Shown: positions 1 through 42,920, numbered from the stretch's first letter. The stretch is DNA of 52,139 nt from Psammoneis japonica (GCA_008632985.1 QPGO01000062.1:372001-424139), one strand, 5' to 3'. Made by a program: numbers and translations. The notes: generated by a model not told the origin, from the sequence alone.

Positions 1-149
1 AGGGCACAATGTGCAGCTAAAGTGATTTGAGTTGCAAGCTCACACAGTGACCTGGGGGCCCACAGTGTCTCTCAACAAAAAAAGGAGGCAGGCACAGCCT
101 TGCTCCTTTTCACATTTTTTTTCAAGAAACCAAGTTTGCTTGAAAGAGT

Positions 150-800
150 TGTGGCATGTGGCTGTGCTGCTGGGGGTGTTGAGGTTGTTTTGTGAAGGCA
201 TTGTCACACCAGGGCTGCTCAAGGCAGCAGCATTTGAGCTTGGAGATGACCTGTCAGCAAAACACTTGGGGGGGGNNNGGGGGGGGGGGGGTGGAAGAAA
301 ACTTCCAGCTGACTCTGCCACCACACACACAGCACAGGCTTGCAAAAGCATCAACAACAAGGAGCACCATGATGATGAGCTCATGCCATCAGCGCAAAAG
401 AGCCTCCTGGAGGGCTGCTGCATTTTTGTTTTGGGCACTTTTCTTGAGTGGCTGTTTGGGTGTCATCATGCTGGCTGCTGTTGGCTCATGCACATCTTGT
501 TTCAGCAGCAGAAAAGAATCATCTGCCATGACACCCTTCAACATGACACAAGCTCACGGGCATGCTGGAATGCTGGGACCTGTCTTTTTTGATGATCTGT
601 GACATCTGGCAGTTCTCTGGATTGTGAAGCATCCATGATGCTTGCTGCCACACATGATTTGTGCCACACTGCAAAAAACAAAAACAGAAGACCTGTGCAA
701 AACAAATTTCCCCATCAACTTTGGAGCCTCCCTGGCAATGTTTGCATGCTGGCCAAGGGAGAAATTCAAGGAAGCATGCTGCACTCTTGAAATGAAGCAC
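150..800. repeat. Old degenerate dispersed repeat (copy 1; copy 2 at about 27030-27720)
   Basis: Collinear shared blocks, e.g. gtggctgtgctg..ggggtgttgaggttgttttgtg, ccagctga.tctgcca, ccatgacacccttcaac, atttgtgccaca.tgcaaaaaa, tggccaagg(g)gagaaatt. Almost no TpA or CpG. Family not recognisable. Confidence 0.7.
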
Positions 801-801
801 A

Positions 802-1077
802 TGACAGAAATTGAAGGCAAATGGCAAGAATTCAAACAACAACTCCTTGCTGCTGTCTAAATGGCAGATGAGTCTCCGCTCAGAGACCGTTGCAGGAGCC
901 GAAAGACGTGCAAGTCGGCACAATCGGGCTGCTGTTGTCATTCTTGTGAGCCGTGTGGCTCGAAAGCAAACTGCATCGCATGCGAACGCGCAGAACTAAA
1001 GCACACAAAACTGTGCGCGGCAAACTAAACAGCACGCGACATTTCGCGCGCACCTGAATCCTGTTCAAATCCTGTCA
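802..1077 (-). repeat. 276-bp LTR of Copia family A
   Basis: Inverted copy of 9097-9372, with TGACAG...CTGTCA termini and an adjacent polypurine tract (GGGGAG on the minus strand). Confidence 0.92.
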
Positions 1078-3212
1078 CTCCCCAGTTTGCTTGAGGAGTC
1101 ACAGAAACAGATTCGACTTCGGATGGAATGAAGTTCCAGAACATGAGGGGGCGGAGAAGGTCCCAGACTTGGGAGCAACCCCAATGCTTGCTGAGAATGT
1201 CAGCAGGGTTGCGGGAGCCTTCGATGAAGTGGAGCTCAAGGCAACCAGAGGCAATTGCCTCGCGCACATGGTGGAATGACAGTGTGGTGTGTCGCTTGTG
1301 TGACTTGGAGTGCGGGATGGTGGCACTGTCTACAACCGACTTGTTGTCACCGAACATGTGACTGATGTCACAGATCGGGACGCCGAGGCAGCGCAGGGTG
1401 ATGCGCAGGTCAACAATCTGCTCGACACAAGTCCTTGCGGCAACAAATTCAGAGCCGCAGGTTGCAGTCTCCATGGTGGCTTGCTTCTTAGAGAACCAAT
1501 CAGCCAGGAATTTGTTGAGGAAGTGGAGCATTCCCATGACAGAGCGTCCGGTGAGCATGCAATGGCACAAGTTTGCATCGACGCAGTGGGTGGCAGCAAC
1601 GAACTTGCCAAGGGGTGGTGGAGCGTCCTTCGGGATCATCTCTTCTGCCTTGCCGCACACGGAATGCATCCATTCACAGGCCGGAGCAGGGAGATCCGAA
1701 CAGTCGGGCTCTTCCGTGCGAACGCAGAGAGCGCCGTGTCGCATCTTGGAGAGGTGCCAACAGATGCGTTTGGCACGATCCAAGTGGCCTTGACGGGGCG
1801 CAGCTCGCCGTTCCTGCGCATCCAAATGTCGGGTTCGGCGCGGCAGGGGAAGAAACCTTCAGCTCGCAGGCAGTCGGTGAAGCGCTCATGCCAGCGGAGG
1901 CCGGAGCTGTGCAGTCCATGCAGGGCCTTGTGGATGACAAGAATGTGGCCTTCGAGTTTGCCAAATTCGGGTCCAGCCATGATGCACAGCTTCTCCTTGG
2001 TGGTGGCTTCAAGGTGGGCATTGCCAATGTCGGTGGCCCATGTCTCCAACTCGTTGAGTTCGGCCAGGAAAATCATCAGCCGAAGGCCACGGAGGGAGAC
2101 TGCTCCGGAGCAGACACTGTCGATGGGCACATCCGTGAGGTGCCCATCGGCTGCGAGTCGTGCCTTGTGGCGGCCGTCGTGTTTCACGTCACACACCAGG
2201 TGCACTCGGATCTTCTTGTGTCCCGCAGGAGGAGTGGAAGACTCGGAGGGCCCGCAGTCATGAAAGACTTCGTATTCATCAAGTTGGTCCATCTCGAGAT
2301 TAGTTGCGTCTCCCCATTTGCTGTTGCCGTTGCATTCGTCTAGTGACATGGCGTGTTTGCAGTTCCGGGGAACTTCGCATCCGCACTTGTGGCGAGGTGC
2401 AGTGCGGAAGGAGCAAAGCTTGGCTTGGTTGGCCATGCGGAGCAGCTTCTTCTGGCACCTCGCGATGGTGCGGAACCGCTTCCAGCCATCAGTGTCGAGA
2501 AGTCCGTTCTCTCGTGCACAGATGGCGCAGGTGACAGGGTCGTCCTTGGCGATGATGGCAAGAGGCTTGGACGTGATCTCCCCACTTTCCCATTCGAGCA
2601 TGCTGTTGTAGCTTGAGCCTTTCCAGGTTGGGTCATGAGGCTTCAGAGGTCCTTCGTGTGGCACAATGCATTGAAATTTCCAAACAGTGGTGTCCTCGTC
2701 TTCTTGCTCAATGTGATTCATGATGTCATTGCAGGCCAGGACTTCCTCGCATTCGTCGTTGTTGACAGAGCAGACGAACTTGGTGAGCTCAGGGTTGCCG
2801 TTCACTTTCCATTCGTGGTCTTTGACGGCCTTGACGATGCAAGCTCTGTGGCGTTGTCCATCCTCTTGTGGCTGCATGAGGAAGGTGCGTCCGATGATGT
2901 CTTGTGGATCGAAAACTGGCATCTTGGGTGTCCTGATCTCCCCATCGGGTGAATCGACGGGGTTGTCGTCATGGCGAGATTTGATGATGGGTTCAGGTGG
3001 CTCCCCATCAGGAGGATCAAGACGCAGGTTTCGAACGGCAGGATCGGTGGCAGCGGATCGTACGTTGGACCGGCAGAGGATCTTCTGAGTGTCGTCAGAG
3101 AGAATCTTGAAGGTCATCTGGTGGCCGACGTGCTCAGCAATGCCAACAAAGCGTCCACGCAACTCACGGGATTCGGATGGCCAATCGGAGTCATCGAGGT
3201 GGAAGCACACGG

Positions 3213-3607
3213 GACGCGTTCCAGACGCAGGTGGGAATCCGTGTGACATTGGGCCCGCAGAATTCTGCGTGCGAGCTCCGCAGTAAAATTGTGCGGCAAC
3301 AAAAATGTCAACAGTCGCCAACAGAAAATGAGGCAATTTTGCGAACACACAAACTCGCCCATGATTGAAGTGCATCATTTTTTACTTGGCCAGTTGCATT
3401 CTTCAGACATTGAAGAATGTAACTGTCCCATCATTGTTCCCACAAATTCGTCACATGAAACGTCTGGGGCTTCGCAAAACAGCGAGTCTGGACAATTTTT
3501 TTTAAATGTCACACGTGGAAATGTGCGTGCGAAACACACGACGGATGACAAAAATTTTTGTGTCACACGTCAGTGCTGCGAGCTCCCACCCAGGGCTGGA
3601 ACGTGTC
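3213..3607 (+). mobile_element. 395-bp MITE copy 1 (TpA-hypermutated), inserted in the Copia integrase region
   Basis: TIRs GACGCGTTCCAG...CTGGAACGTGTC. 4-bp TSD ACGG (3209-3212 / 3608-3611). The empty site is visible in the paralogous Copia at about 6541-6560. Confidence 0.95.
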
Positions 3608-3663
3608 ACGGGTTCCCACCAGTGAAAGCAAAGCAATGGGCTGATGTCCGGGGTGGAGCCAAT

Positions 3664-6600
3664 GTGATCCCTTTGCCCCGCAGTTATAAGAACATGTTGT
3701 CAGCTCCAATTGGTCTGCACATTGTCAAAGCACACGAAGGTCTTGACATTGCCAATGACTCCTCGTTGTTCACGCATGACGAGTTCCTTGCCTGCCGCCT
3801 CAGCCCCGACTGCATGTCTTCTGTGTCCGTCAGCAGCTCGCCCCTCGCACCTCCGCATGTCACCAACGCGACCAAGGCACGCGACCCGGCACGAGACTTC
3901 AAACAAGGCATCAAGTGTGACCCCACCGCTTTCACGGCTCTCAAATCCGACAAGCAGTGGCACACTTGGCACACCTCACTTGTGGCACAAGCCCATGTCC
4001 AAGACGTCAAGTGTGTTCTAGACTCATCGTACAAACCGACCAGCCCCGAAGACAAACTGCTCTTTGCTGAACAGCAAAAGCACATGTTCGCCGTCTTCGA
4101 ACGCATCCTTCTCACCAACAAGGGCAAGGCTCTCATTCGCGAAAATGTGGGGTCTTCTGACGCCCAGACCGTCTGCCGCGCCTTGTCTGAGCATGCGCTC
4201 GCCTCCACCCATGCATCTGTCAAGTCCTCCACCTTGCTCACGTGCCTCACCACCGCATGTCTTGGTGATGGCACTTGGAAAGGCCCGACCCACGGGTTCA
4301 TCCTTCATTGGCAAGATCAGTTGCGCAAGTGCGAGGCACTCATCCCGGCCAGTGACCACTTCTCTGAAAGACAGAAGCGCGTCATGCTCGAGAATGCTGC
4401 ACATCCTGTCAAGGAACTCCGTGCTGTCAAGAACCAAGCTGATCAGCATCACACGCAGAGTGGCAAGAGCCTCACATGCGATCAACATTGTGGCTTGCTC
4501 CTCTCCACGGCGGCTCAATGCGACAGTGCGTTTCAACCCAAGACGACACCTCGAGCTCCCTGATGCGCCACACACGCACACGACGTCCACTCCGAGGAAC
4601 CGTCCGATGATGTGTTCTGCGACATTGACAGTGACATTGACGTCCTTCAGGCCAATGCTGCCTGCACCCATGGTCCCAGCCTCACCGGTGACCAATGGAA
4701 ATGTCTGCCTCCCGACCACCAACGGATTTGGGATTCGTTGCCCCATTCCTCCAAGGCAATCATCCTTGAGCATTCTCGTCTGCCTCCCCGCAACCCGCGA
4801 GCCAGCAACTGCCATGAGTCCATTGCGGCCAACCTTCACGACCAACGCCTTGGGAGTGACGGTGATGTCAACTTGTCCAACACGACTCCTGCTGACTCTG
4901 GTGACCCCGCTCCAAATGTGGATGCCACTTTGGACAATCCCATCCTGGCGCACCTCACCAAGTGCAAGCCACTGCCACCCGGTGATCTGCAACGCCTGTT
5001 GTCTCCTGACCAAGCCCCCAATGCCAGTTGACCGGGGCCATCCGCCGCTCCCTCTGCCTCGCCAGCTCCCACCGATGACACAGAACTTAACGGCCGCACT
5101 TGCCGCCGCGTCAATGACCACAATGTCATTTGCTCTGCCTCTGCTCATCGCTCCACACGCACTGGTGCTCCAGTCGATCGTGGGGCCAATGGCGGCATTG
5201 CTGGCGACGACGTTCGCGTCATTGCATGCACCTCTCGCCAAGTCGACGTTCAGGGCATTGACGACCATCAATTGGTGGACATCCCTGTTGTCACCGCTGG
5301 TGCCGTCATTGAGACACAGTGTGGTCCCGTCATCGCCATCCTCCATCAGCACGCATGCACGGGAAAGGGCAAGACCATTCATTCCTGCGGCCAGCTCGAA
5401 TGGTGCAAACAGGATGTCAACGATCGCTCTGTCAAGGTGCCCAACGGCTTGCAATGCATTGCCACCCCTGATGGCCATGTCATCCCAATTGACGTCAAGG
5501 GCGGCCTGCCTTGTGTTGTCATGCGACCTTGCGCTGACGCCAAATGGGACACCCTGCCCCATGTCATCCTTGCCGGTGATGACACATGGGATCCTTCCAC
5601 CTCGATCACTCTGTCACTGACGACGAACAGTGGCACGACGCGATCTCTGACCTGCAGGACGATCCCACTGCCAACCCATTTGACGAATGCGGCAACTGCC
5701 ATCATCGTGTCATTGTCAACAAGACCATCATGTCCGCTTCCTTGTCTGCCGATCACGCGTCCGCCCTCGATGATCACCTCATTCCGAACGACGACGTGTT
5801 CCACGAGTGTCATCTGCACACGATTGACCCCAAGGACGATGACGTTCCGCCCCCGGAGTGCACTGTGCAGCCCAAGGACCCCCCCTTCGAGTCTCTTTGG
5901 CCTTGCTTTGGCTTCCTGCCTGCCGAAGCGGTCAATCGCACTTTTGACTGCACCACGCAGCACGCCCGCATGCCCGCCGGTGCACACCTCAGGAAGGCCT
6001 GCAAATCGCCCAACCTCGCCCTCAATGTGCACCGCCGCAACGAGCCTGTCGCCACTGACACCGTTTGTGCCGACACCCCGGCCATCGACTCTGGTTGCAC
6101 CAGCGCCCAACTGTTTGTTGGCACCGAGTCTGCCGTCACTGACGTCCACGGCACCAAAACGGACAAAGAGTTTGTCAACACACTCGAGGATCAGATCCAT
6201 GAGCGTGGTGCCCCATCCAAACTCATTGGCGACCGTGCTCAAGTTGAGATCAGCAACAAGGTGCTCGGGATCCTACGAGCCCTCTTCATCTCCAGCTGGC
6301 AAAGTGAGCCTCACCAGCAACACCAAAACTTTGCCGAGCGTCAATGCCAGACCGTGAAGCGCATGGCGAACACTGTCATGGATCGTTTCGGTTCACCTGC
6401 CCACACATGGCTGCTGGCACTCATGTGCGTGTGCTTCATGCTCAACCACGCAGCATCCCCACGTCTCCACTGGTGCATGCCCCTCAAGACTCTCACTGGC
6501 TCCACCCCAGACATCAGCCCATTGCTTTGCTTTCACTGGTGGGAACCCGTGTGCTTCCACCTCGATGACTCCGATTGGCCGTCCGAGTCCCGTGAGTTGC

Positions 6601-9372
6601 GTGGACGCTTTGTTGGCATTGCTGAGCACGTCGGCCACCAGATGACCTTCAAGATTCTCTCTGACAACACTCAGAAGATCCTCTGCCGGTCCAACGTATG
6701 ATCCGCTGCCACCGATGCTGCCGTTCGAAACCTGTGTCTTGATCCTCCTGATGGGGAGCCACCTGAACCCATCATCAAATCTCGCCATGACGACAACCCC
6801 GTCGATTCACCTGATGGGGAGATCAGGACACCCAAGATGCCAGTTTTCGATCCGCAAGACATCATCGGACGCACCTTCCTCATGCAGCCACAAGAGGATG
6901 GACAACGCCACAGAGCTCGCATCGTCAAGGCCGTCGAAGACCACGAATGGGAAGTGAACGGCAATCCCGAGCTCACTAAGTTCGTCTGCTCTGTCAACAA
7001 CGACGAATGCGAGGAAGTCCTTGCCTGCAACGACATCATGAATCACATTGAGCAAGAAGACGAAGACACCACTGTTTGGAAATTTCGACGCATTGTGTCA
7101 CACGAAGGACCTCTGAAGCCTCATGACCCAACCTGGAAAGGCTCAAGCTACAACAGCATGCTTGAATGGGAAAGTGGGGAGATCACGTCCGAGCCTCTTG
7201 CCATCATCGCCAAGGACGACCCCGTCACCTGCGCCATCTATGCACGAGAGAACGGACTTCTCGACACTGATGGCTGGAAGCGGTTCCGCACCATTGCGAG
7301 GCGCCAGAAGAAGCCATTCCGCGTGGCCAACCAAGCCAAGCTTTGCTCCTTCCGCACTGCACCTCGCCACAAGTGCGGACACGAAGTTCCCCGGAACTGC
7401 AAACACGCCATGTCACTAGACGAGTGCAACGGCAACCGCAAATGGGGAGACGCAACTAATCTCGAGATGGACCAACTCGAGGAATACGAAGTCTTCCATG
7501 ACTGCGGGCCCTTCGAGTCTTCCACTCCTCCTGCGGGACACAAGAAGATCCGAGTGCACCCAGTGTGCGACGTGAAACACGACGGTTGCCACAAGGCACG
7601 ACTCGTAGCCGATGGGCACCTCACGGACGCACCTGTCGATGGTGTCTACTCCGGAGCAGTCTCCCTCCGTGGCCTTCGGCTGATGATTTTCCTGGCCGAA
7701 CTCAACGAGTTGGAGACATGGGCCACCAACATTGGCAATGCCTGCCTTGAAGCCACCACCAAGGAGAAGCTCTACATTGCAGCCGGACCCGAATTTGGCA
7801 AACTCGAAGGCCACATCCTTGTCATCCACAAGGCCCTGTGTGGACTGCACAGCTCCGGTCTCCGCTGGCACGAGCGCTTCGCCGACTGCCTGCGAGCTGA
7901 AGGCTTCTTCCCCTGCCGCGCCAAACCTGACATTTGGATGCGCAGGAACGGCAGCCACTGTGAGTGCGTTGCCGTTTGTGTGGATGACCTCGCCATTGCT
8001 GTGAAGGACCCTCAATCTTTCGTCGATGCTCTCACGGAAAAGTGCAAGTTCAAGCTCAAGGGTGCGGGACCGATTGAGTTCCATCTGGGCTGCGACTTTT
8101 CCCGGGATCCCAATGGCACCTTGTGCCTGTCTCTGCGCAAGTACATGGAGCGCATGGTCGACAGCTGCACCCGACTGTTTGGGGAGAAACCTGCCACCAA
8201 TGCCCTGTCACCTCTGGAGAAGGGTGACCACCCCAAACTGGACACTTCCGAACTGCTGGGGCCCGATGGCATTCACAAGTTCCAGTCTCTTGTTGGTTCA
8301 CTCCAATGGGCAGTGTCCCTTGGTCGAATTGACATTGCCACGGCCGTCATGTCACTCTCTGGCTTCTGAGCTGCACCCCGTCAAGGCCACTTGGATCGTG
8401 CCAAACGCGTCTGTGGGCACCTCTCCAAGATGCGACACGGCGCTCTCCGCGTTCGCACGGAAGAGCCCAACTGTTCAGATCTCCCTGCTCCGGCCCATGA
8501 ATGGATGCATTCCATGTACGGCGAAGCAGAAGAGATGATCCCGAAGGATGCTCCACCGCCCCTTGGCAAGTTCGTCACCACCACCCACTGCGTTGATGCA
8601 AACTTGCACCATTGCATGCTCACCGGACGCTCTGTCATGGGAATGCTCCACTTCCTCAACAAATTCCCGGCTGATTGGTTCTCTAAGAAGCAAGCCACCA
8701 TGGAGACTGTGACCTGCGGGTCTGAATTTGTTGCCGCAAGGACTTGTGTCGAGCAGATTGTCGACCTGCGCATCACCCTGCGCTGCCTTGGCGTCCCGAT
8801 CCGCAACATCAGTTGCATGTTCGGTGACAACAAGTTGGTTGTAGACAGTGCCACCATCCCGCACTCCAAGTTACACAAGCGACACACCGCACTGTCGTTC
8901 CACCGTGTGCGTGAGGCAATTGCCTCTGGTTGCCTTGAGCTCCACTTCATCGAAGGCTCCCGCAACCCTGCTGACATTCTCAGCAAGCATTGGGGTTGCT
9001 CCCAAGTCTGGGACCTTTTCCGCCCCCTCATGTTCTGGAACTTCATTCCATCTGAAGTCGAATCTGTTTCTGTGGCTCCTCAAGCAAACTGGGGAGTGAC
9101 AGGATTTGAACAGGATTCAGGTGCGCGCGAAATGTCGCGCGCTGTTTAGTTTGCTGCGCACAGTTTTGTGTGCTTTAGTTCCGCGCGTTCGCGCGCGATG
9201 CAGTTTGCTTTCGAGCCACAAGGCTCACAAGAATGACAACAGCAGCCCGATTGTGCCGACTTGCACATCTTTCGGCTCCTGCAATGGTCTCTGAGCGGAG
9301 ACTCATCTGCCATTTAGACAGCAGTGAGGAGTCATTGTTTGAATTCTTGCCATTTGCCTTCAATTTCTGTCA
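3664..9372 (+). mobile_element. Ty1/copia LTR retrotransposon family A, lacking 5' LTR and gag start; gag-PR-IN-RT-RH pseudogene
   Basis: Domain order is gag (about 3690-5030), protease (VDRGANGG, about 5173), integrase (VATDTV, SEPHQQHQNFAE), RT ([Y>C]VDD at 7977-7988), RNase H (VDAN, GSEFVA, NPADILSK), PPT GGGGAG 9091-9096, LTR. In-frame TGA stops at 4561, 6699 and 8367, plus frameshifts. Confidence 0.95.
9097..9372 (+). repeat. 276-bp 3' LTR of Copia family A
   Basis: TGACAG...CTGTCA directly after the PPT. Matches 802-1077 inverted. Confidence 0.93.
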
Positions 9373-9499
9373 CAAGGAGGAGCTCTTGAAGTGCCTGAGA
9401 GGGAGTGCTGCACAGAGCTGCAAGGTCTGGACACTGACTTTGGCTTTCTTGTGCTGCCCCCCCCCCCCCCCCAAGGAGGGTGTTGCAAAAGGGCAGCAC

Positions 9500-9670
9500 A
9501 GCATTGTCCCTCCTTGCAAGGCTGACCAAGCAAAAGGGGAGGGCCTCAAGTCACCAAAGGATTTTGACCACAGAGTGGGCTGAGCCAGATGAAGGCATGA
9601 CAATCACTTCTGACAAGAAGGCAAATGTTTCTGCTGACATTTTGTGCAGTGCTGCAAGGTGTGTGCACGC
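9500..9670. repeat. Degenerate dispersed repeat (second copy at about 35595-35770)
   Basis: Shared string ttgcaag.ctgaccaagc.aaaggg..agggcctcaagt...caaaggattttgaccacagag..tgggctgag.cagatgaagg and cattttgtgcag..ctgcaaggtgtg. Confidence 0.75.
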
Positions 9671-11749: not shown

Positions 11750-12240
11750 ATCTTTTGGCTTTGCCACCGTGAAATGCTTGAGTGTCCTGACTGGCTTTCT
11801 CTTGTTGCTGGATGCACCCACATTGTTTTGGATGTCAACGAGCACTTTTGCAGCCTTGGTCAGAGCCATGACTTGAGCTGCAGTCTTTGGCTCATCTCGG
11901 ATCTTCTTGACCATGGCATCCCGTTTTGCAATGGACTCTGCCCTTGTGTCCTTGAACTTGTGCTTCAGTTCTTGTGCTGACAAACCTTCCTCCTCCAGTG
12001 GCTCTTGTGGATCTTTCTGGAGCAGCACAAACATGCTCTGGCCCTGGTCTTCCTTCTCCTTGGCTGTCGCGAGGTCTGGCATGATGGTCTCACACAAGTC
12101 CTTGCTTTGCTCTTGGTCCATTGGGCCTCCATCATCAACCAACTCCACGTCGCAATCTGACATCAGATTCCCCTGTCCTTGTTTTGGCTCTTGCACTCGG
12201 CACACCACACATTGCTGTTGTTCTTGAGGAGCATGTGGGC

Positions 12241-31300: not shown

Positions 31301-33514
31301 GCGCGGTGAAAGTCATCCTCGAAAAGTCACCGAACCTCTGGGTTTTGATGCAATTCACCTCCTTGATCCACAAACACACATTTGTCTGGACATTTTGGTG
31401 AGTGCTCTTCCAGAAAGTGGCGAAGCCAATTCAGAGGGGTTGCCTTGGACGGTGGAGATGCTTCGTTTTATGATCGTAGATGGTGATCCAACAAGTCTCG
31501 CCATTCAATCCAACACAGTCTTTGGTGCGCTCCGAGTTCTTGGACCGCAGGCCAGAGAAAGAAAAATCAACCGCAAGACCTTGGCAGGGTTGGGTGGCAG
31601 CAAGAGCAGTGTTCGGACCAGCAGGTTCCTTTGTCTGCTTTGCTTGTGTGCATGTGGGACAAGTGTCGAGAGGAGAAGTTCCGTGGGCAAACTTGGGGAC
31701 ACCGTGTTCATGGGCATGACAAAGGCAGTGATCACTCGGATGACCAAGTCGCTGATGCCATGAAAGGCATTCCGTGTCAGCCTTGAGAGATTGGACAGGG
31801 ACATTCTTCTCTGCATGCTCTTCAAAAGGAACATCTTGATGCACTCGGGGGATCAACTTGCATTCAGCACGAAGAGCGTCATGTTGGCAGGTGTGACATG
31901 TTTCAATCATGTGCACAGAGACTGCTTCACACTCATCAGCAAAGGAAGGGTCACTGGTCTTGAGGCGCTCAACAGATGCACCCAATTCATCGTTAGATTC
32001 TGGGAGGATGAGAGGGTGAGCAAAGCATTTGCCATTGATCAATTTCCCATGAATGATGATGTCCTGATTCTTGTGCAATCGGTGTCGTGCAACAAACTTG
32101 CAGGTGCCGAGATCATGGAACTTGAGGACACAATCAACATTGTGGTCTGCACGACGAGGGCCATTTTGACGAAGGAGGAGTCGCTCATCAACCAACGTAG
32201 ATTGGATCTGTGGGTGGCAGCAGGCACGAACCTCAACACATCCATCAGAGTTCTCTGCAGGGATGCGAAGACATCCGAACCCAACTGGGACAGCTTGATG
32301 GCCAAGGGCCGGATTGACAGCAAGGGGACAGGGATGGGACGGAGTGAATTCTTGGTGTCGGTGGAGAAGGTCACGGTCGCCTGCACATGCAACATCAGCA
32401 CCAGCATCCAACTGAGCACAACACTCATTCGGAGCAAAATTTGCCCCATTGACAGAACAAGTTGAGCGCAACAGTTCCGGCTCAGGAGAGTGACTCGCTT
32501 GGTGTGGATCGATCGGAGTGACACGAACAGAATTGATGGCAGCAAAACCATCTTCAACAGCCATGTCATTGCAGGTGAGGTCAATGTGTTCCTCAAAATC
32601 CGGTGTTTCTGGGTCTTCCCTCCCCTGTTCCAAAGGATCCGGAGCACAAGCAGCATCGACGGTGTCTTCCATGGGAGCAGGGTCATCATCTGGTAACTTG
32701 CTGGCATCAAATGACACCTTCGTGGCAGTGGAAGGGGTGGCATCCATGTCAATCTGTGAAGAAAGAGGCACTTCAGTGGCAGATGACGAGACGGTTGGTC
32801 CCTCTTTCAAGGTCATCCCGCTGACATCAGTCTTGTCTCGGTGAGGAGAAAAACGGGCAGTGTCGGAGATCCGAAACTAGCTGCGACGGCCCGATTGAAA
32901 ATCCGAGGGCGGAGCACCAGATCTGGGCGGATTTTCAGGGTTTTCATGATGAGGTGGGAGCAGACCTTGGGATCCTTGGAACTCAGAAGCACGCACAGCT
33001 GCTTCCCTCTTTAAGAATTGACAAAAATGGATGTGAAATCCCTTGATGTGTGGGTTGTTCTTCAGGGCCGGACAGTCATCAAACAAATGCTCTCCGGAGC
33101 AGACAAGACATGGTTTCTTGGAGGCTTCATTCGGAGCAACTTTCAGTTTGCAAACTGAAGCCAAACATGCATGGTGCAGAAGTCGATCTTCGTCCGTAGA
33201 AGGGATCTCGAGTTCATGCAATTCGTCACAAAAAGCATCAAAGGTGTCCAGAGGTGGAGATTCCGCACCAGTGTCTTCAGTGGTGGAGTCATCGACTGGT
33301 TCAGGAAGAGATGTCTCAGGGATCTGGAGAGCACTGACATTGACAGCCGTGCGTCGCGCATCCTCAGCTGCTTGATTCCATGTGCGGCGGGGATTGGATT
33401 GCGTCGCACGAGTGGCAAAGGATGGACTGTCCGGTTGGCAGAGGAAATCAGAGAGAGTCTCGACAATCTGTGCATCTGTGCACTTCTTCTGCACAGCTGG
33501 AGACTTCCGTTCAT

Positions 33515-33909
33515 GACGCGTTCCAGACGTAGGTGGGAATCCGTGTGACATTGGGCCCGCAGACTTCTACGTGCGAGCTCCGTAGTAAAATTATACGGTA
33601 ATTAAAATGTCAATGATCGCCAACAGAAAATGAGGCAATTTTGCGAACGCACAAACTCGCACATGATTGAAGTACATCATTTTTTACTTAGCCAGTTACA
33701 TTCTTCAGACATTGAAGAATGTAACTGGCGCATTATTGTTTCTATAAATTTGTTATATAAAACGTCTGGGGCTTCGCAAAACAGCGAGTCTGGACAATTT
33801 TTTTTAAATATCACACGTAGAAATCTACGTACGAAACATACGACGGATGATAAAATTATTGTTGTCACACGTCAGTGCTACGAGCTCCCACCTAGGGCTG
33901 GAACGCGTC
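33515..33909 (+). mobile_element. 395-bp MITE copy 3 (TpA largely intact, young), inserted in Copia B gag
   Basis: TIRs GACGCGTTCCAG...CTGGAACGCGTC. TSD TCAT (33511-33514 / 33910-33913). Confidence 0.95.
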
Positions 33910-35002
33910 TCATCTCTGGTGGCACGAGATGAGAACTTGGAGTGCTTGGTGTTCTTGACAAAGACAGTCATCTCCCGTGGATCGTTCAACGTAGAGTCCG
34001 CATCAAAAATGCAGGCATGCAGCTGTGGGAAATCATTGAAGATCATGTGGCAGTCTGTCAATGATCGATTGCCTTGGACAGGATGGGAGTCAACCAGTCC
34101 AGCAGCATCGTGGTCGAAAGCAGGATGATTCTCACAGACAATCTGCTTGAGAGCCTTGTGTCCATTGCCGCAGCATGATGCAACAATCCGATGACATTTG
34201 CTGTTCTTGGGGAACACACCCGACTTGGATGAGATTTTGTGGAGAGAGCTCTGAGCTTCCTTGCAGTGGACGCACATGCATTGAGGCAAGTCATCATCCT
34301 TGCCGTTTCCGATCTCGAAACCTTTCACACCACCGTGGTCCTCAGCAAAACACCACAATGGATGCATGTGGCATCCTGAATCAAAGGCATGACGTTGGAA
34401 ATTTTGGCACCATGCTCGCATCCCAGGGGGAGAGTCGTCGTGACATGCAGGAGGTTCCCTGAACAACATTTTCTGGTCAGGAGTCAAGCTCATGATGAAA
34501 AGGGTGCCATCGTTGAGGATGATGCAATTGGATGCATCAACACAGTGACGGAATCCATGGTTGCAAGGGACGAGGGAGCTCTGAAGAGCAACTTTTCCGT
34601 TCGTGGATGAAGTGATCACGAAGCATGTCCGCAAAATCTTTCTTGGGTTGCACGCGCTCTGGATCGTCAAAGAACGGGTCGAGATCAGTTGTGGAGTCCG
34701 CACAAATCGCACCCAGGCAGCCATGTAGATGTGGCATCGTTGTGTGTGCCTCGAACTCACAGCAGATCTCTGCAATGGACGGAAGAGTGGGCTTTGTGGG
34801 GTCGGAAGACACCATGGTTTTAGTTGGTGGAGCCATTTTTGGTCATGCACGCGCAGAAATCTGGTGTGTTTCTACGGTCATGAAAAATGCCGGGAAAGCG
34901 AGACAAAAAGTTGTCAGATCAGACGATGAGGCTCGCTCGATCGGCTCACAAAAGAAATGAATCGAAACAGAAAGCTTGGCGCACAGGTCTGTGGCACAGC
35001 AC

Positions 35003-35014
35003 GCGGCCATGACC
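35003..35014 (-). other. Probable primer-binding site of Copia B
   Basis: GGTCATGGCCGC directly follows the 5' LTR. It resembles the GGTTATGG-type PBS of copia elements primed by an internal tRNA-iMet fragment, with TA->CA. Confidence 0.55.
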
Positions 35015-35212
35015 TGACAGAATGCCGAAGGTCAATGGTGACAGAGGCATGAAAGACTCCCTGAAGTGCCAGGACTGTGATGACACGAGCACCAGCAGAT
35101 GAGAAAGTGAGAAGCAGATCTCAGAGAGATCTGCTCTCGTCTGTCTGAATGGTCCAGCCATCATCCACATCCAGTCTGTCCATCATGCGACATGCAGACA
35201 GACAGGCTGACA
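35015..35212 (-). repeat. 5' LTR of Copia B (198 bp)
   Basis: Direct repeat of 28106-28301 with a 2-bp indel. Followed by TSD AAGAC. Confidence 0.95.
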
Positions 35213-36298
35213 AAGACAAGAAGAAAGAGAAGAGGGAAAAGAGGGGGGGGGGGGGGATTTTTGGCCACTGCAGATGCTGCCTTTTGCTGCACTGCTGGAA
35301 GGTTCCAACACACACACACACAGAAGCTCTGTGGCACATGAGGAGCAAGTCACCCACGATGTCGTCAAAGGATTCACCCTGTCAGTGGGTTGGGGGGGGG
35401 GACCAGAGTGCATCACAAACTGGAAGGAAAGTGTTTTTTGCAGGATGCCGCAGCACACACGGCAGCAGTGGTGGCCGTTGATGAGCCCTCCTTCCCCCCC
35501 ACGACCAACGCTTCCCACAACCAGGAGCAGCCTGCCCGCCCCCCCCTCCCCCCATGATCTTTTGCTCCATGTGACTCTGTGAGGCCACCAGCACAATTGT
35601 CCCTTGCAAGACTGACCAAGCCAAAAGGGCAGGGCCTCAAGTTGTCAAAGGATTTTGACCACAGAGAGTGGGCTGAGTCAGATGAAGGAATGATGATGAG
35701 CACTTCAAACAACAAGGCAAGAATTTTTGGTGGCATTTTGTGCAGCACTGCAAGGTGTGGTGCACACCACCATCCAAAAAGATTTTGTTGGTTGTGATGC
35801 ACTTCTTGGATGACACAACTGCCCACACACACAACACTTTGGAAGTGTGCTCCTGTTGTGGTGGTGGTGGTGTGTGTGCTCTTGCTGCTGTCTCCTGCTC
35901 TGCGCCACTTTTTTCTCACCCCACAAACCTGAGAGAGGATTTCCCAACATGAACTCACACGTATGCACCACTTTCTCACTGCATGTGGTTTCCAAGTGCA
36001 TGAGCTTACCAACTGAGAAGGAAGAAGGAGGGATGCCCCCGCCTCCATCCCTCGTCGTTTACTGCAACCATCCTCGCTCTAAAGTGGTGCGAGGATCAAT
36101 GGTCATGACTGTATGATTATCAACCGTTAATATAATTATTAATTCTTTATTAAATTGAAATAGAAATTGCTAATATACGGTACATATAAAATGTGTACTT
36201 AACAACGATATTTTGAATTTCAACTGAAAAGGTATCGCTTGCTCACATTTTTCTGCGAACAATCCAGATCGCAACATCACATGCAACATTCCGCTACA

Positions 36299-37464
36299 AT
36301 GACGGGGTTTGCTCTTTGCTTACCGGTAAGGCTTCTCCTGGGGATGATCTTGGCGCTCAGTGATGGTGACATGCGACAAAACAACATCCCTTCAAGGCGG
36401 AACAGTGGAAAGAAAGCTGTTTCTTCCATGCTCCGTAACACTTTCGAACAGGATGACGAGAGGGATATCAACCATGACGAAAACGATGTCTTTTGGCAAA
36501 GACTCTTAGAGAATGTTGGAATGATGAGTGTATCAGTCCCAAATTGTGGACCTCCGCCCGCTCCAACTCCTGTCCCGGCCTGCACGCCAACAACGGGAGC
36601 TTGTGTCTCGAACTTCGCGAGCCTTCAGACGGAGCTGGATAGAGCAGGCCCAAATTCGGTTGTTTCTCTCTGCGGATCAAACACAATCACTACTCCTTTC
36701 GCCGTCCGTGTTACTCAGTCTGGCATTTACTTGTGCTGCGAATCGGAGAATTGCATCATAGAGAGCAGCACAACGTCTTCGGATCGGAATCTTGTCGTAA
36801 CGGGTCAAGACTTTACAATGGCCAAGATGGACATTCGAGGAGGTAGCACTGGGGAAGGACGAGGCGGAGGAAATGTCAAAATCATCTCCAACGGTACGCA
36901 TCGTATTTTAGAATGTAGATTTGAAAGAGGCCAACACCAATTAAGTGGTGGAAACTTGTTTATTCGGACAACCGGCGGTGTTTTGGTAGACAAGAGCAGG
37001 TTTGCCGAAGGCGATGCTCCAGGAGGTGGAGGTGTGTATGTGGAGGATGCCTTGGATGTTGTCATTACGTCTAGTGAGTTTTTTGGTAACAACGCTACTG
37101 GCACTGGCGGAGGAGGTCTCCTGACAACCCTTACCTCACCGACATCTCTCACGGCGGGACAGCGTATTTCCATATACAAAACATCCTTTGAAGAGAACAC
37201 TGCGAGTTTCGGCGGTGGGTATTTGGCGACTACGATAGGGCAAATGCCTCGATTGACTATTGCGGAGAGTGTGTTTGAGCAGAACATGGCGTTTGAGGGG
37301 GCGCAGCGGGCACTTTTCTGTACGACGACATCAACACCTTGGATTTATCGCTGTGCTCCAATGATGGGACTGAGAATGTTGCAGAGAACGAGTGTGACGA
37401 CTTCCTCTTCTACTTAAAGGATGCTGTGAACACTCGCTGCATTACAGTCACTGAGGACTTTTGA
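36299..37464 (+). CDS. Second copy of the secreted beta-helix gene, with a 1-bp frameshift near the 3' end
   Basis: High identity to 23128-24288. The G run at about 37297-37301 has 5 G versus 6 in copy 1. The homologous C-terminus (..VTEDF*) continues in another frame to 37464. Confidence 0.75.
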
Positions 37465-37980
37465 GAGATTGCCATGTGTGATTGCAAAGGCCATCACTGC
37501 ATGGTGAAAGGGAGAATGAGAAAATGAATAAACACTGCGCAAGAACAATGCTAGTCATGTTATACACAGAAACACAATACATAAAAGCAAAGATCATTTC
37601 TTCTTGCGTTCTCAAGCTGTATCCTTATAACATTTCGCTGGCCCTGGCATTCGAAGTTGCGCACGACCATGTCACTCAACACCGGGCTACTTATGCGTGC
37701 TGACTAGAGAGACATCATTCGAGCGCTCAAACGTGCTTCTTGGTAAATAAAAGCCGGCCTAAAGTCAAGTCTCTCAAGAGTCACCGCAACTAGAGAGCGT
37801 GCTGTGATCAGTATCCTCCGGAAAGTTCATCCGCAAAGCGAAACCTTTTTCTGGCAGATCTGAAACTACATATCTGACTCTAGGCCTATCAGGTAGTCGC
37901 TACGTACAGTTTGAAGATGTCTCTAGACTATAGCTACCGTATTCAAAGCGGCGTGCTTGCGCGTTGTTCCGTAATGGCGT

Positions 37981-38430
37981 TCAATACAATTGAGAATTAC
38001 AGGGCAGCTTCTTGACGTGACGCTTCTTGGTTTTCGCATCTCCTCGCTCTTGTCGTCGCATTCGTTCTTGGTGCAAGCTACCCAACACGTGATTGACTTG
38101 AGAGTAATCCTTTACGGGCGGTTTATTGGGTTCTTCTACCTTTGTTGATGCAGGCTTGCTATAATCCGAGCTCGTGTCTTGACCCGGAACTTGTTGTCGG
38201 TGGTGCTGCTCTTCGTTTTCGTCAATCATCATGTTGTGTTCATCATCTCGTACTGTTGTAACAGAAGCATATTCTTCGATACGCATTCTCTTGAATGAGT
38301 GGCTCGGGTCGTCTTCGACGGCAGCGGCATCTCGTGGGCGCTTGGACGTGTTGTTCTTGTTGGGATGAAAAGAGTGCGTGCTTCGAGGCCTTTTCGTGTG
38401 TGGTTGCAGAGGATGATTGGAAAAACTCAT
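37981..38430 (-). CDS. Hypothetical hydrophilic protein (149 aa)
   Basis: ATG-to-TGA ORF with normal dinucleotide composition and basic NLS-like patches. Its 3' end is duplicated at 24890-24970. Confidence 0.6.
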   Translation of the reverse strand: MSFSNHPLQPHTKRPRSTHSFHPNKNNTSKRPRDAAAVEDDPSHSFKRMRIEEYASVTTVRDDEHNMMIDENEEQHHRQQVPGQDTSSDYSKPASTKVEEPNKPPVKDYSQVNHVLGSLHQERMRRQERGDAKTKKRHVKKLPCNSQLY

Positions 38431-38889
38431 TTTAGAACTCGCCGCGTCTCTGTCTCTATATCAGATAAAGACAGAATCGTTCAATAAAGCGCTCTCTCTG
38501 CACGTAAGAAATCGAGGTGTTTGATCCGATCTTCGCTTATCTCAGACTTTTACGTGAGTTCTTGTCCGTGATAGCTGTACCGGTATTACCAAGCTTTCGG
38601 TAATTTTCGCATTCACAAAAGTAAACAAAAAGCAGACCCCGCGTATCAGCCAAAAAGGCTTATGTTATCAATGGCGATAGAAAAAGTGTATCGTTGCGCT
38701 TATGGGGATGCTCAACGTAACAACCAACAACAAGAAACAACAAGATGTTTGCAGAATGACAACGAAAAGCTCGTCAGACTTGATCGTCCACCGTAGAAAT
38801 CTACGTAGTTTTCCGTACATTATCAATCACCGCGCCTGTCTATCGCGCGATGCAGTTTCAGTCTTCCCGGGGTGTGTTGGCTGCATAGT

Positions 38890-41800
38890 TAGCTGTCATT
38901 GTGTGGTGGTTTCTCAAAAAAGAGGCATGCCCAACAAAAAGCTTGTTTGTGCTCTTGCACATGTGCAACGCAACTCTTTTCAATGAGGCTTGCCTCTGTC
39001 TTCACATTTCAGGCTGTGCTTCTAACAAAATGACAAGGGTCTCAACATGTGGTGTGTCGTGCACTCATTTTTGCAGGCTTTGTGTTTTGTGTCATTGTTG
39101 CTTGCATGCAGCAGCAGCAGCAGCAGCAGAGGTTGTGTGTTGTGTTGACCACAAGCACTGGCATGTCAGTTGAAAAAGGGGTCAAGGGATTTTGTCATTA
39201 GGTGCTCAGTTTTGTCAAATCAGAAAACTTTTTCTGTGATTTGAGATGTGTTCATTGTGGAAAAAGAGCAAGCAAAACAGCTTTTCTTTTGTCACAATCA
39301 CAAACTGCAATGGAGCCATGTCAAAGCAAAGGCCATTCAGTGATGTTGCAGCAGTTTGGAAACAGTTGTGCTGCAGCATGTCATGACATCATTTTTGAAG
39401 TTGTGACATCACAGCCAGTGCAGCCTTTCAACAGCATGGTTGCAGCTGTTGCACCACATTGCATCACATTTTCTCATTCAACAGGAGCACATTTCTTGCA
39501 ACTCATCACGTGCATTTCCCTGTCAAACATTGTCCCTTCTTCACACCATGTGAAGTTGTTGATGTCATTTTTTTTAAAACTTCATGACCCTCCATCTCAA
39601 AAACAAGACAACAGCTTCTCCCCTTTTCCCTCTCCCACCAATGACTCCTTTCATTGCACAACATGACAAAGTGACACAAAAATGTGTGGAGCATTTTTGA
39701 GACACAACCACACTTTTGTGCATTTGTGCAGCATGTCTTGAGCTCTTTCAATGCAAGTGACCCTCCAACTCACTGTCCTGATTTTCTCTCTCACACCTTT
39801 CACACTGACCCAATCACACACACCAGCCTGTTTTCCCTCTCAGTGTGACACAACATCCAAGCAATGTGTCAAATGTGTGTGACATGTTTCAAAAATCATG
39901 ACCCGCCATTTGTGTGCCAAGAGTTCAGCCAGCTCATCAAGTGGGCAGCCCCATCACACATGCCAGGCAGTGACAGCAGTTTTTGCAAAAACCACTGTTT
40001 CTTCAAAAAAAAAAAAACCTCTCAACAACTCCTTGCAGCCACTCAACAAGACAGGGATGAGACAGCACTGGTCTGCCAGCCGGCAGCAGTCACCAAGGGA
40101 GAAAAGGAAGCTGCTGAAGCTCATTTCAAGCAGTTCTCAAGCAGAACCTGATGATTGTGCCTTTTTTGTCATGACATGTCTTGTTTGTCATGATGCTCTT
40201 GGATGCTCTTGGCTTCAGCACTCTTGTCATGAAAAAGGCAGAGACTTGCAACTTCATGCCCTGACAGTGCACACAGCTGCTGTGCAAGCACAGTGCAGCT
40301 GTGATGACAGCTGTTTGCATCACTCAACACACTTGCTCATTCAGAAAATGCATTGCCTCGAAGGAATCAAAAATCTTTCTCCTCCCAATGGTGGCTGGCA
40401 ATGGGCTGTGTTGCCAAGTTTTTGTGGACTTTGTCATGTGTGCACTCATGATCTCCAACAACCCAATGCACAGTGTGCCAGTGACTCCATTGTGCAAAAA
40501 GAGATAAAATGGCAAGAAACACCACAGCACAACTCACTGCAATTGAAGAGTGACAATGTCTGACCCGAGCTTTGTCACACCCATCAATGGAGTGGCATGA
40601 AAGGGGTCAGCCATGCACTTGTGCAAGACTTGTCCTCAATGCATCAAAAACAAGCCACTGTTTGAGCCAGCAGTGGAGCACAAAGAAATTAAGAATGAAA
40701 CCTCAGAAATGAGATGACAAATTGTTGCTTGTGGATGAAGGAAATGCCAATGCCAGCATTCTTTGATGAAGATTTAAACCCATTGGCAAGCAACACAAGC
40801 AGTGACAACCCTGTCAGGCTGGCCAACACCAACGTGCTGAAGGGCTTCTGTGCCCAAAGAGTGTGCTGCAAGGCAAGAAGAGGGGCAAAGAGTGGGCACA
40901 GCACTGCCACAGTTGGTTGCAAGTGGCTGATGCTGGTGGGTGGAAAGAGCTGGACAAGCTTGAGAAACACGTGCAATGCCTGCGGCAGCCCAACAAAAAA
41001 TGTGTCCAAGGCAAGGGTGTGCATCGTGCAGAATGGCTGCATGGATTTGCTTCTCCTGCTGCCACAGAGAATTGTTTGCACAGGTCTGACAACCACTGTG
41101 AGAACAGAGTTGCTGGGCTTGTGTCATGTGACTCTTGTTGCACTCCATGAGCAGAACAAAAGCAGTGCAGCAAAGTTAAAGTGGCTGGTGCGGTTTGTTC
41201 AAATCTGTGACCAGGAATGCCACAAAATTTGCTGGATGCATGCTCCATGTGAAATCAACTTGAAAATTCTCTGTCACCATGCTCTGCACCTCCTGCACTG
41301 GCTCATGCTAAGTTCACATTTTTTGGAGCCTCAAACCTCTTGGCGCTCATGTTGCAGACTCAGATTTAAGGCTGATGGGAGAAATTGCATGTTGTGAACA
41401 TTTCTCTGTTTGTGTTGCAGCCTGGAAGGCTGCTCCCACCCACTTTTGCAAGTGGCAACAGCATTGCTCATCATGTGCCACAATGAGGTGACTTGCAATC
41501 TTGAATCTTGGCCCTGCCTTCAATGCTGTCAGTGGCAAGATGGGCACGCCACTCCTGCACAGAAGGCAGGGGTTGTTGACAGCACTGCCTGTCCAGGTTT
41601 GAGCCTCAAAGCATTGTTGGAGATGTGGCCTCATGTTGTCTTGGAGAACTTTGCACGGCAAAACACTGAGGCAAAGCCAGCTGAGGCCAGCAGCCTTGCA
41701 TTTGTTGCTGCACTGTTGAGCACATTGTTGTCACCACAAACAACAGGTGTGCACCATCAAGAGGAGCCATGCTCAGATTCTTGCACTGCTTGCTCAAGTC

Positions 41801-42920
41801 ATGGCTTGTCCTCAGAGCAACGCACAAGCAACCATGTTTTGCCCATCAGCTGACCACCAACTTGCAACATGAAAATTGACATTTGTGCTTTGCAGCAACA
41901 ACCGCAGCATCTCACATTAAAAATGGCAATGTCTTGCACCCCAGAGGCATTGCTTTGCACTCAGACAACACAGCAGCTGAGCACACAAATGAGACAAAGA
42001 TGAAAACTGCACAAATGCATGCACCCATGGACAGGTCACTTGACAGGAGCTGTGGTTCAAGAAGAAGCAGGGGCTGCAAATGCCAGTGTGCTCGCACCTG
42101 AGTCTCAACCTCCAGTGGCCACAAAAGAAATTGTCAAGAACCAAGGGCACAAAAAGTGTTGTTGTCAGAGGTGCTCAGAAAGATTTGCCACAGAAGAGTG
42201 TCGGCAGCAGAGATGCCATGGAGCAAAGGGTCAAGCTGTCTGCCCTGACTTGGCAAGCAAATGGCACAACATTTCATGAGAGCAGATCTCTGGAGCTGGC
42301 AAAAAGGTGATGAGCAACCAGGAGTGCACACAGTTTGTGAGTGCAAGCAAAGCAACAGACTGGCATTTGCTGGATGCAGGAGCCTTGATGGACAACAAGT
42401 GTCTGGAGAAAATGCACGAATGGCAGGAGTGCATGTCAGAGCAGGCCAAGGATTGTGTTTAAAAAGTTCAAAAACAAAAAGCAGTGCAACAAACTCTCCA
42501 AGAAAAGGGCTCCAAAATCCCTGCTGCTGGGCCTGGCAAAAAGAGTGAAAAAATAAAACAAGAGCAAGCTCAAGGCATCCCTTGACCCAGCCAACTCAAC
42601 AACAGCTGCCAACGTTGTTTTGCAGCCCTCCCGCATCATGTCCAGCAGCTGGAGAGTGCGTTGTTGGCACACAGCAGCCATGGGTGGGGTGGGGAGGAAG
42701 CAGCAGCTGGGTCTTTTGACAACAGCATCAATGGTGTGTCATGCAAACAATGGCAATGGTGTGCACAGCAAGTCCAAGCCACCCTTTGCCGACAGCGTGT
42801 TTCTTTGTTCCAGTCGAGGTTTGAACCCGTGTGTGCCCGTGCCTCCAGTGCGAGTGTTGGCGTGCGTGCGCGAACCTCGAACCTCTCCGACGATCTCTTC
42901 ACATTTTTGCCGAAGCCAGC
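38890..42920. other. Old TpA- and CpG-depleted relic domain
   Basis: Very few TA or CG dinucleotides. TG/CA-rich. The ORFs are Cys/His-rich and unrecognisable. Confidence 0.6.

Follow-up and report, generated by a model that had tools for sequence, protein, structure and literature searches.

Near-complete loss of TpA from transposon-rich domains of a 52-kb window points to DNA-level hypermutation beside spared genes

The window analyzed here, the whole stretch of 52,139 nucleotides at QPGO01000062.1:372001-424139, is a mosaic of gene islands and transposon-rich domains, and these domains are nearly devoid of the dinucleotide TpA (TA in counts). The islands carry an ankyrin-TIR gene, two paralogous beta-helix genes, and a group of further genes that includes a Tic110-like plastid gene. 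The domains contain copia retrotransposon fragments, a copia element with long terminal repeats (LTRs), copies of a miniature inverted-repeat transposable element (MITE), and unclassified repeats (Table 1). Depleted blocks were called with a two-state hidden Markov model on TA versus TG/CA, together with dinucleotide counts per kb. We describe the depletion, the direction of the change that produced it, and the processes that may account for it.

Seven blocks, 34.3 kb in total, are TpA-depleted. They retain 131 TA, an observed/expected ratio of 0.06, whereas 200 mononucleotide shuffles of the depleted DNA gave a mean of 2,068 TA (standard deviation 34, minimum 1,983). The normal blocks (17.8 kb) hold 782 TA, and their ratio of 0.61 is ordinary. 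Per kb, the ratio is 0.02-0.18 across most of 1-18, 25-33, 34-36, and 39-43 kb, and 0.4-0.77 in gene-bearing stretches; gene islands taken as blocks have ratios of 0.56-0.66. A preliminary description of this DNA had reported repeat DNA nearly without TpA next to gene islands with normal TpA, and both this contrast and its coordinates are borne out, with all blocks lying within about 110 bp of them. Three normal-TpA stretches inside depleted DNA were absent from that description. Two correspond to young MITEs (12256-12589 and 33530-33893). The third is a patch of 109 bp with 6 TA (13936-14044), which may be a small recent insertion.

The depletion is confined to particular dinucleotides. Within the depleted blocks, TG and CA are in excess (observed/expected 1.62 and 1.66), CG is reduced (0.54), and TC steps show no depletion (1.09). 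The ratios of AT, AA, and TT are the same in both compartments, with AT at 0.89 in each. TG+CA makes up 14.1% of dinucleotides in normal and 20.5% in depleted DNA; the corresponding shares are 4.4% and 0.38% for TA, and 5.3% and 3.5% for CG. Since the four together are nearly constant (23.8% in normal and 24.4% in depleted DNA), the gain in TG+CA approximately equals the loss of TA and CG. The GC content is 46.3% in normal and 50.9% in depleted DNA. The borders between the compartments are step-like, and the TA share among pyrimidine-purine (YpR) steps goes from about 1% to about 30% inside a few steps. An imperfect palindrome of 111 bp (18278-18388, 83% self-complementary) lies about 25 bp into the gene island from the border at 18253.

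Table 1. Features of the window, with observed/expected ratios of TpA (TA) and CpG (CG) where given
Feature	Coordinates	Strand	Remarks
TpA-depleted domain 1	5-12250		TA 0.087, CG 0.73; inverted copia fragments, old MITE copy, unclassified repeats
copia (RVT_2) fragment	802-3213	-	about 95% identical to 6546-9372, inverted orientation
Old hypermutated copy of 395-bp MITE	3213-3607	+	sits within depleted copia
copia fragment	6546-9372	+	reverse transcriptase ORF 6702-8369, Cys/His in conserved Tyr columns
1.3-kb inverted pair, arm 1	10432-11749	-	92.7% identical to 13362-14678
Young MITE copy	12241-12635	-	TpA 0.92, inside depleted DNA
TpA-depleted block	12597-13930		TpA 0.034
1.3-kb inverted pair, arm 2	13362-14678	+	partner of 10432-11749
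TpA-depleted block	14046-18252		TpA 0.063; step border at 18253
Gene island	18254-21240	+	TpA 0.62; ankyrin-TIR gene
TpA-depleted block	21243-22795		TpA 0.022, CG 0.24; no domain recognized
Gene island	22800-24714	+	normal TpA; beta-helix gene ORF 23059-24288, paralog of 36203-37417
(GA)n microsatellite	24650-24704		exactly at normal/hypermutated border, within duplicated host segment
Host-derived flank	24723-24969	+	hypermutated; colinear paralog of island sequence ending at 38060
TpA-depleted domain	24723-33524		TpA 0.06; 24.7-28.1 kb single-copy (k-mer depth) and CpG-poor; LTR-copia from 28.1 kb
LTR-copia element	28105-35212	-	gag-pre-integrase, SH3, and RVT_2 domains
LTRs of LTR-copia element	28105-28301, 35014-35212		92% identical
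Young MITE copy	33515-33909	+	TpA 0.87, inserted in hypermutated LTR element
TpA-depleted block	33899-36001		TpA 0.041
Gene island	36007-38890	+	TpA 0.66; second beta-helix gene and flank
TpA- and CpG-depleted domain	38894-42975		TpA 0.047, CpG 0.17; single-copy by k-mer depth; no domain or homolog
Gene island	42980-52136		TpA 0.56; TSP3-repeat open reading frame (ORF), Tic110-like plastid gene, GT92 glycosyltransferase

Three tests, independent of each other, agree that TA is the ancestral state and TG/CA the derived one. The first compares copies of a 395-bp MITE with terminal inverted repeats of roughly 12 bp, which is present three times in the window. The two young copies are 98% identical to each other and have normal TpA, although both are sited within depleted DNA. 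At the 27 positions where both have TA, the old copy has 12 TG, 9 CA, 4 TA, and 2 other dinucleotides. Transitions to TG/CA thus make up 21 of the 23 changed TA, and only 15 of 335 other sites changed, compared with 23 of the 27 TA (Fisher p=2e-22). At CpG, 23 of 26 sites are unchanged, so that 12% of CpG and 85% of TA were altered in the same copy. The young MITEs are flanked by step borders and keep their own TA intact, which implies either very recent insertion or a process that is active only in episodes. In public run X1, the k-mer depth of this family is about 82,000, compared with 34-67 for single-copy DNA, which implies a copy number of the order of 1,000 or above. The near identity of the two young copies, which are not hypermutated, suggests recent activity.

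The second test uses a paralog that crosses a border. A duplication covers the beta-helix gene together with its flank (36223-38060 and 23046-24969, 83% identical), and the latter copy passes from normal into depleted DNA at a (GA)n tract. Left of this border, 9 of 17 TA and 8 of 15 CG of the island copy are conserved. Right of it, none of 16 TA is retained (6 TG, 6 CA, 4 other), and neither is any of 17 CG (8 TG, 7 CA, 2 other). Divergence at the remaining sites is 13.9% on either side (47/337 left, 25/180 right). The (GA)n tract may act as a barrier element.

The third test concerns the reverse transcriptase (RT) of copia. The RT ORF at 6702-8369 was aligned with 52 homologs (P0123-P0174) from the 120 matches listed of 1,269; P0121 and P0122 were excluded as tandem-duplicated ORFs. 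In 17 columns, Tyr is found in at least 80% of the 52 homologs. In these columns, the residues of the window are 9 Cys, 5 Tyr, 2 His, and 1 Phe; Tyr was lost from 12 columns, with Cys or His in 11 of them, and the motif YVDD reads CVDD. By comparison, 236 of 257 other conserved columns are retained (p=5e-9 versus the Tyr columns). Because TAY to TGY gives Cys and TAY to CAY gives His, these replacements identify TA as ancestral. The preponderance of Cys over His (9 versus 2, p=0.07) is too weak for use. The top copia matches on megabase contigs (P0121, P0122, P0125, and P0144) were considered as hypermutated relatives and rejected, their Tyr content being normal.

The RT protein also retrieved 49 environmental copia loci, three of which share the signature. 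L035 (1-1943) has a TA observed/expected ratio of 0.13 and Cys or His in place of Tyr in 10 of 13 cases; the corresponding values are 0.27 and 10 of 14 in L033 (1-1884), and 0.31 and 8 of 21 in L023 (1-2759). The other 46 loci have ratios of 0.52-1.02 and at most 3 such replacements. At no more than 69% DNA identity to the window elements, the environmental loci are unable to supply direct ancestors of these elements, and they represent separate families, probably of other organisms. L002, whose accession falls in the series of L033 and L035, is intact (TA observed/expected 0.84).

The three tests uphold the earlier proposal that TA became TG or CA by A:T>G:C change on either strand, which is seen at 21 of 27 TA in the MITE, 12 of 16 in the paralog tail, and 11 of 12 lost Tyr in RT. 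Two doubts raised with that proposal, that TpA might show no excess over other contexts and that TG/CA might be ancestral in outgroups, are countered by the MITE counts (23/27 TA and 15/335 others) and by the Tyr (TA) of the 52 homologs.

CpG change to TpG/CpA is also present in the window, as in the paralog tail, where 15 of 17 CG became TG or CA. However, TpA loss is faster than CpG decay and independent of it, and the two are separate processes. In the old MITE, TA changed far more often than CpG did, and at 1-9 kb TpA is at 0.02-0.18 while CpG stays high at 0.70-0.90. Both ratios are below 0.2 at 25-28 and 39-42 kb, and CpG is at 0.05-0.25 in 21.2-22.8, 25-28, and 39-42 kb.

When survival in each NTAN context is expressed as the density in depleted DNA over that in normal DNA, it is lowest for ATAT (0 versus 64 sites), ATAC (1 versus 45), and CTAT (1 versus 32), and highest for TTAG (0.32), TTAA (0.29), CTAA (0.27), and GTAG (0.20). 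The TA surviving in both members of a duplicate (n=19), together with the 4 in the MITE, mostly have a purine on the 3' side and rarely A on the 5' side, and several are TAGA. In the 1.3-kb inverted pair, 9 TA survive in both arms and 7 in one. A class of resistant TA sites fits better than uniform risk. The contexts are weak evidence for a target preference of TAT > TAC > TAA, TAG, and some survivors may be newly created TA.

Duplicated segments within depleted DNA reveal when and on what the change acted. Dinucleotides that read CA in one copy and TG in the other occur 26 times in the 1.3-kb inverted pair (10.4-14.7 kb) and 4 times between the 199-bp LTRs; the two parts of the copia inverted pair contribute 10 and 9. 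Double CpG decay accounts for only about 0.5-1.5 of these per pair, by a hand estimate from the CpG counts of the alignments. Since CA and TG are each one step from TA and two steps from each other, TA was hit independently in each copy after duplication, on either strand. In the copia pair, which is about 95% identical, most TG/CA states are shared, so part of the change was copied as DNA and consists of heritable substitutions. The copia fragments, with part of the neighbor of the old MITE, form a long inverted repeat (802-3667 and 6491-9372) with a 2.8-kb spacer, which would give a hairpin RNA if transcribed.

By k-mer depth, 24.0-28.0 kb (60-83) and 38.7-43.3 kb (34-49) are single-copy and yet depleted, and the LTR-copia element belongs to a multi-copy family (depth 2,000-5,000). 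That a DNA transposon, a gene-colinear host flank, and single-copy segments are all affected speaks for chromosomal DNA as the target and against RNA or cDNA editing. The preliminary description had likewise seen LTR elements, DNA MITEs, and host-derived sequence affected alike, and the process did act in place on genomic DNA. The strands are balanced in depleted DNA, with 3,402 TG and 3,634 CA. Runs tests on 4 sets of 9-26 sites detected no strand-coordinated tracts of the kind expected from a processive single-strand deaminase (for example, 10 runs versus 11.3 expected), which is a weak negative. In the inverted pair (10432-11749/13362-14678), CA on the window + strand is favored in both arms (19 versus 7, p=0.03); this skew is too weak for use, and a replication- or transcription-strand bias is possible.

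Contigs assembled from the reads of run X1, with k-mer depths of 34-67, were compared with the window. Over 38782-44000, a single contig covering depleted and normal DNA at uniform depth shows 0 differences, as does the match to 26299-27649. Against 24705-26325 there are 2 differences, both CpG/TpG. The earlier concern that reads might have TA where the assembly has TG/CA is therefore answered in part, by contigs that agree with the assembly, at the level of contigs and not of raw reads. A real signal is supported independently by the inheritance of TG/CA states between duplicates and by the same pattern in the three environmental loci. The k-mer depth of the run X1 contigs is about 34 at 38782-44000 and about 56-67 at 24003-28155, and the island at 36.6-38.7 kb has allelic differences of every kind. 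This suggests a heterozygous diploid with haplotype-specific stretches.

Indications of the host come from the gene islands. The first exon of the Tic110-like protein (start 49308, minus strand) encodes a signal peptide that ends in an ASF-AMLP junction, which we take to be of the ASAFAP type, a motif found in diatoms and in other algae whose complex plastids are red-derived. The closest homologs are 50-60% identical to it, as they are among themselves, and have ..SAF.. or ..DAF.. junctions. Several genes are long single ORFs. These features suggest a diatom-like ochrophyte as the host.

A process with the same signature has been described in the chlorarachniophyte Bigelowiella natans (Rhizaria). 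According to passages of a preprint by Mettrop et al. (bioRxiv 10.64898/2026.01.13.699255, 2026), mutation-accumulation lines of this alga undergo A>G/T>C hypermutation at TpA only. In 15 lines, 231 of 302 nuclear single-nucleotide mutations fell in inserts of nucleocytoplasmic large DNA virus (NCLDV, 186 kb) and virophage (25 kb) origin. A>G or T>C changes accounted for 230 of these 231, each of them at TpA, and the rate of about 6e-7 per site and generation exceeded background some 1,000-fold. Events occurred in 11/15 lines for the NCLDV insert and 6/15 for the virophage insert. The same passages report 124 clusters of 1-kb windows depleted in TpA and enriched in CpA+TpG, as well as an enrichment of TpA-poor coding sequences for reverse-transcriptase and DDE domains, and the authors propose an ADAT2-like DNA adenine deaminase. 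The preliminary description knew of no described system with this signature, a statement that the preprint overturns, adenine-deaminase proposal included. Our search of literature full text, with subscription journals outside its scope, found the signature in the B. natans preprint only, and found none for diatoms or other stramenopiles.

The two cases are alike in several respects, as far as the passages of the preprint go. Both involve A>G/T>C at TpA giving TpG/CpA, with 21/23 changed sites in the window MITE and 12/16 in the paralog tail. Both are limited to delimited regions, foreign or silent, while the rest is normal; in the window these are the seven blocks with copia, LTR, and MITE sequences, which are presumably silent. 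Both raise GC and are associated with transposon domains in TpA-poor DNA. The B. natans process is not constitutive, and the same may hold for the window, where the only hint of activity restricted to some lineages or episodes is the pair of young MITEs with TA intact. There are also differences. The viral inserts of B. natans are still TA-rich (TpA 3.3% in NCLDV and 9.2% in virophage DNA), whereas TpA in the depleted blocks is at 0.38% of dinucleotides. In the window, transposons and adjacent flank are the targets, near saturation, over two thirds of its length and with step borders. The rate was measured in B. natans, whereas the window provides a footprint in sequence. The passages of the preprint state no trinucleotide context. 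The host also looks like an ochrophyte, and the window therefore represents the B. natans signature in what is probably a second, distant lineage. The dominance of transposons, the near saturation, the step borders, the separation from CpG decay, and the context hierarchy are new relative to B. natans.

Other known systems resemble the window only in part, in agreement with the earlier view that its signature is not one left by repeat-induced point mutation (RIP), 5-methylcytosine (5mC) decay, or ADAR/APOBEC editing of retroelements. RIP in Neurospora and other fungi also produces transitions at one dinucleotide in transposon-rich DNA, with sharp edges, inactivated elements, and compositional domains. 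However, its direction is opposite: RIP is a C>T process, mostly CpA>TpA, which makes TpA and lowers GC, whereas the window loses TpA and GC is up. RIP also needs duplication, whereas the duplicated beta-helix pair (83% over 1.9 kb) is unmutated and the single-copy segments at 24.7-28.1 and 38.9-43.0 kb are depleted. Old divergence could hide a former repetition of these segments. Decay of 5mC resembles the window in the palindromic loss of YpR to TpG/CpA in silenced DNA, and it is present in part of the domains; it cannot remove TpA, however, and is weak at 1-9 kb, where TpA loss is complete. Retroelements hypermutated by APOBEC or ADAR in animals likewise have deaminase-type transition clusters in mobile elements, with a 5' U preference in the case of ADAR. 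These systems are strand-asymmetric, act on RNA or cDNA, and reach retroelements only, whereas the window shows hits on both strands and has a DNA transposon and host flank among its targets. The 5-hydroxymethyluracil (5hmU) of dinoflagellates, as described in passages of PMC11572971, is a TpA-preferring modification that silences algal transposons and offers a possible T>C route. It also prefers TpC, which is undepleted in the window, and the passages of that paper mention no mutational footprint.

That the process is real, acted in place, and is specific to TpA at the DNA level is, in our judgment, highly likely. As an overall explanation, we lean toward targeted TpA hypermutation of transposon-rich DNA that includes a deaminase step. 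A targeted process would turn TpA into TpG or CpA (A:T>G:C), on either strand about equally, in transposon-rich and presumably silenced nuclear domains, and neighboring genes would be spared across step-like borders. The process may be episodic. Its effect would be genome defense through the loss of Tyr codons, of TATA-like and other TA-containing signals, and of TAA/TAG stops. Removal of TAA/TAG leaves open frames in all six phases of depleted DNA. The two single-copy, CpG-poor domains (24.7-28.1 and 38.9-43.0 kb) and other ORFs of depleted DNA yielded little, and may derive from old transposons, viruses, or host sequence. Pfam searches on 22 ORFs gave 2 matches only, a weak Tic110 piece in a gene island and RVT_2. 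For ORFs of depleted DNA, a protein search found no homolog of a 232-aa ORF, and none of a 337-aa ORF among 1.84 billion representatives.

The enzyme could be a TadA/ADAT-like adenine deaminase acting on DNA, with the resulting inosine read as G, and it might be recruited to silenced chromatin or guided by sequence. TadA/ADAT enzymes deaminate A34, which lies 3' of the invariant U33 in tRNA. A deaminase is favored because the natural target of this family is A after U and because pure A>G is the inosine outcome. Taken on its own, the assignment of this step to the TadA/ADAT family is tentative, that of a plausible candidate rather than a probable one.

Several points weigh against this explanation. 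On the 3' side, the contexts suggest that T is preferred over C, and C over A and G, an order that matches no deaminase known to us. ADAT2 is universal in eukaryotes, and a signature in only some lineages is thus unexplained. Known TadA-type enzymes require a single-stranded substrate, yet the targets look silent. Step-like borders suit sequence-guided targeting more than spreading chromatin, and the deaminase model leaves them unexplained. Guided or insulated targeting is suggested by the borders, one of which coincides with the (GA)n tract, and none of the models considered here explains it. Episodic action is suggested solely by the two unmutated MITE insertions, and a host separate from B. 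natans solely by a targeting motif and gene structure. Furthermore, the assembly may derive from the same sample as run X1, for which no platform is recorded, and the read check thus lacks full independence.

The main rival explanation invokes thymine hypermodification. A TET/JBP-type oxygenase would convert T to 5hmU, or to further oxidized or glycosylated forms, at TpA in silenced DNA, and occasional mispairing with G would yield T>C, much as 5mC decays at CpG. In dinoflagellates, according to passages of PMC11572971, 5hmU preferentially takes the place of T in TA and TC dinucleotides, and transposons are silenced by the TET/JBP enzyme responsible for it. TpA is palindromic and can be marked on both strands, which is consistent with TG about equal to CA, and its loss co-occurs in some domains with CpG decay, itself the decay of an epigenetic mark. 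TC steps are not depleted, however, and excision repair of the modified base predicts transversions, whereas the MITE changes are transitions almost throughout (21/23). The mutagenicity of 5hmU is regarded as low, and neither 5hmU nor base J has, to our knowledge, been reported from ochrophytes or chlorarachniophytes, which also counts against this route. We consider it rather unlikely.

A second alternative is improbable. Here, N6-methyladenine (6mA) placed at TpA in silent DNA would be deaminated or misread, or a mismatch-specific glycosylase or short-patch repair would act on T:G and A:C mispairs at TpA with a bias toward G:C. Either version accommodates a strictly A:T>G:C change that is strand-symmetric at a palindromic dinucleotide, and very-short-patch repair of E. 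coli, which depletes CTAG, is a precedent for biased repair. Against the former, known eukaryotic 6mA is found at ApT, not TpA, and the AT ratio is identical in both compartments. Against the latter, removal of about 95% of TA needs a very high supply of mispairs, whereas other sites diverge by just 4.5-14%, and the step borders are again unexplained.

Editing of transposition intermediates, in which RNA or cDNA would be hypermutated before integration to give dead-on-arrival insertions, is very improbable. It would fit step borders that mostly lie at element ends and independent TG/CA choices among copies of one family, as well as the preference of ADAR for a 5' U noted in the discussion of Mettrop et al. 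However, a MITE of the cut-and-paste type is affected, as are single-copy segments and a gene-colinear host flank as far as the microsatellite, and TG and CA are balanced with no strand asymmetry. In B. natans, moreover, the passages of the preprint place the events in integrated single-copy DNA in culture.

A technical artifact, such as a modified base miscalled in nanopore base-calling and a wrong assembly, might draw on the unrecorded platform and possible source-sample status of run X1 and on strand-specific miscalls at a palindromic site, which could resemble a random TG/CA choice, but it is barely credible and already largely refuted by the uniform depth and 0 differences of a single k-mer contig across depleted and normal DNA, the TG/CA states that the duplicates of about 95% identity share and thus copied as DNA, the TA retained by young MITEs in the domains, the same Tyr to Cys/His pattern in three unrelated environmental contigs, and the same signature called from Illumina data in passages of Mettrop et al.

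A broader reading goes beyond targeted hypermutation in one genome and is doubtful, if possible. TpA-directed editing of chromosomes could be a widespread genome defense of algae in the SAR (stramenopile-alveolate-rhizarian) clade, namely in stramenopiles and rhizarians, with guided targeting and an enzyme class new to eukaryotic chromosomal DNA. TA would be erased from transposons, viral inserts, and their immediate flanks, in a mirror image of RIP. Such targeting, accurate almost to the base pair, would imply guidance by sequence or boundaries: by small RNA, by homology, or by insulators, of which the (GA)n tract at 24.65 kb may be an example. The enzyme might be either a thymine modifier specific for TpA or a naturally occurring adenine deaminase of DNA.

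If the lineage assignment holds, the window provides a second, phylogenetically distant case of a mutational genome defense otherwise represented by one preprint of 2026. Beyond the B. natans study, it indicates that near saturation can be reached, that ordinary transposons are the main long-term targets, and that borders can be a few bases wide. Were a natural enzyme responsible for A:T>G:C at chromosomal TpA, its biochemistry would be novel and attractive for base editing. Other genomes are easily scanned for the footprint, in which TpA observed/expected is below 0.1, TG/CA exceed 1.5, Cys or His stands in place of Tyr, and all six phases have open frames. In affected genomes, it skews gene prediction, transposon dating, and substitution models.

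Two further observations concern the gene islands. In the product of the intronless ORF at 18584-20344 (+), ankyrin repeats precede a TIR domain, an architecture of the immune type. In the last island, tandem units of about 144-147 bp, mutually 67-73% identical, occupy 43361-44558 (+) within an 866-aa ORF that has a match to thrombospondin type-3 (TSP3) repeats.

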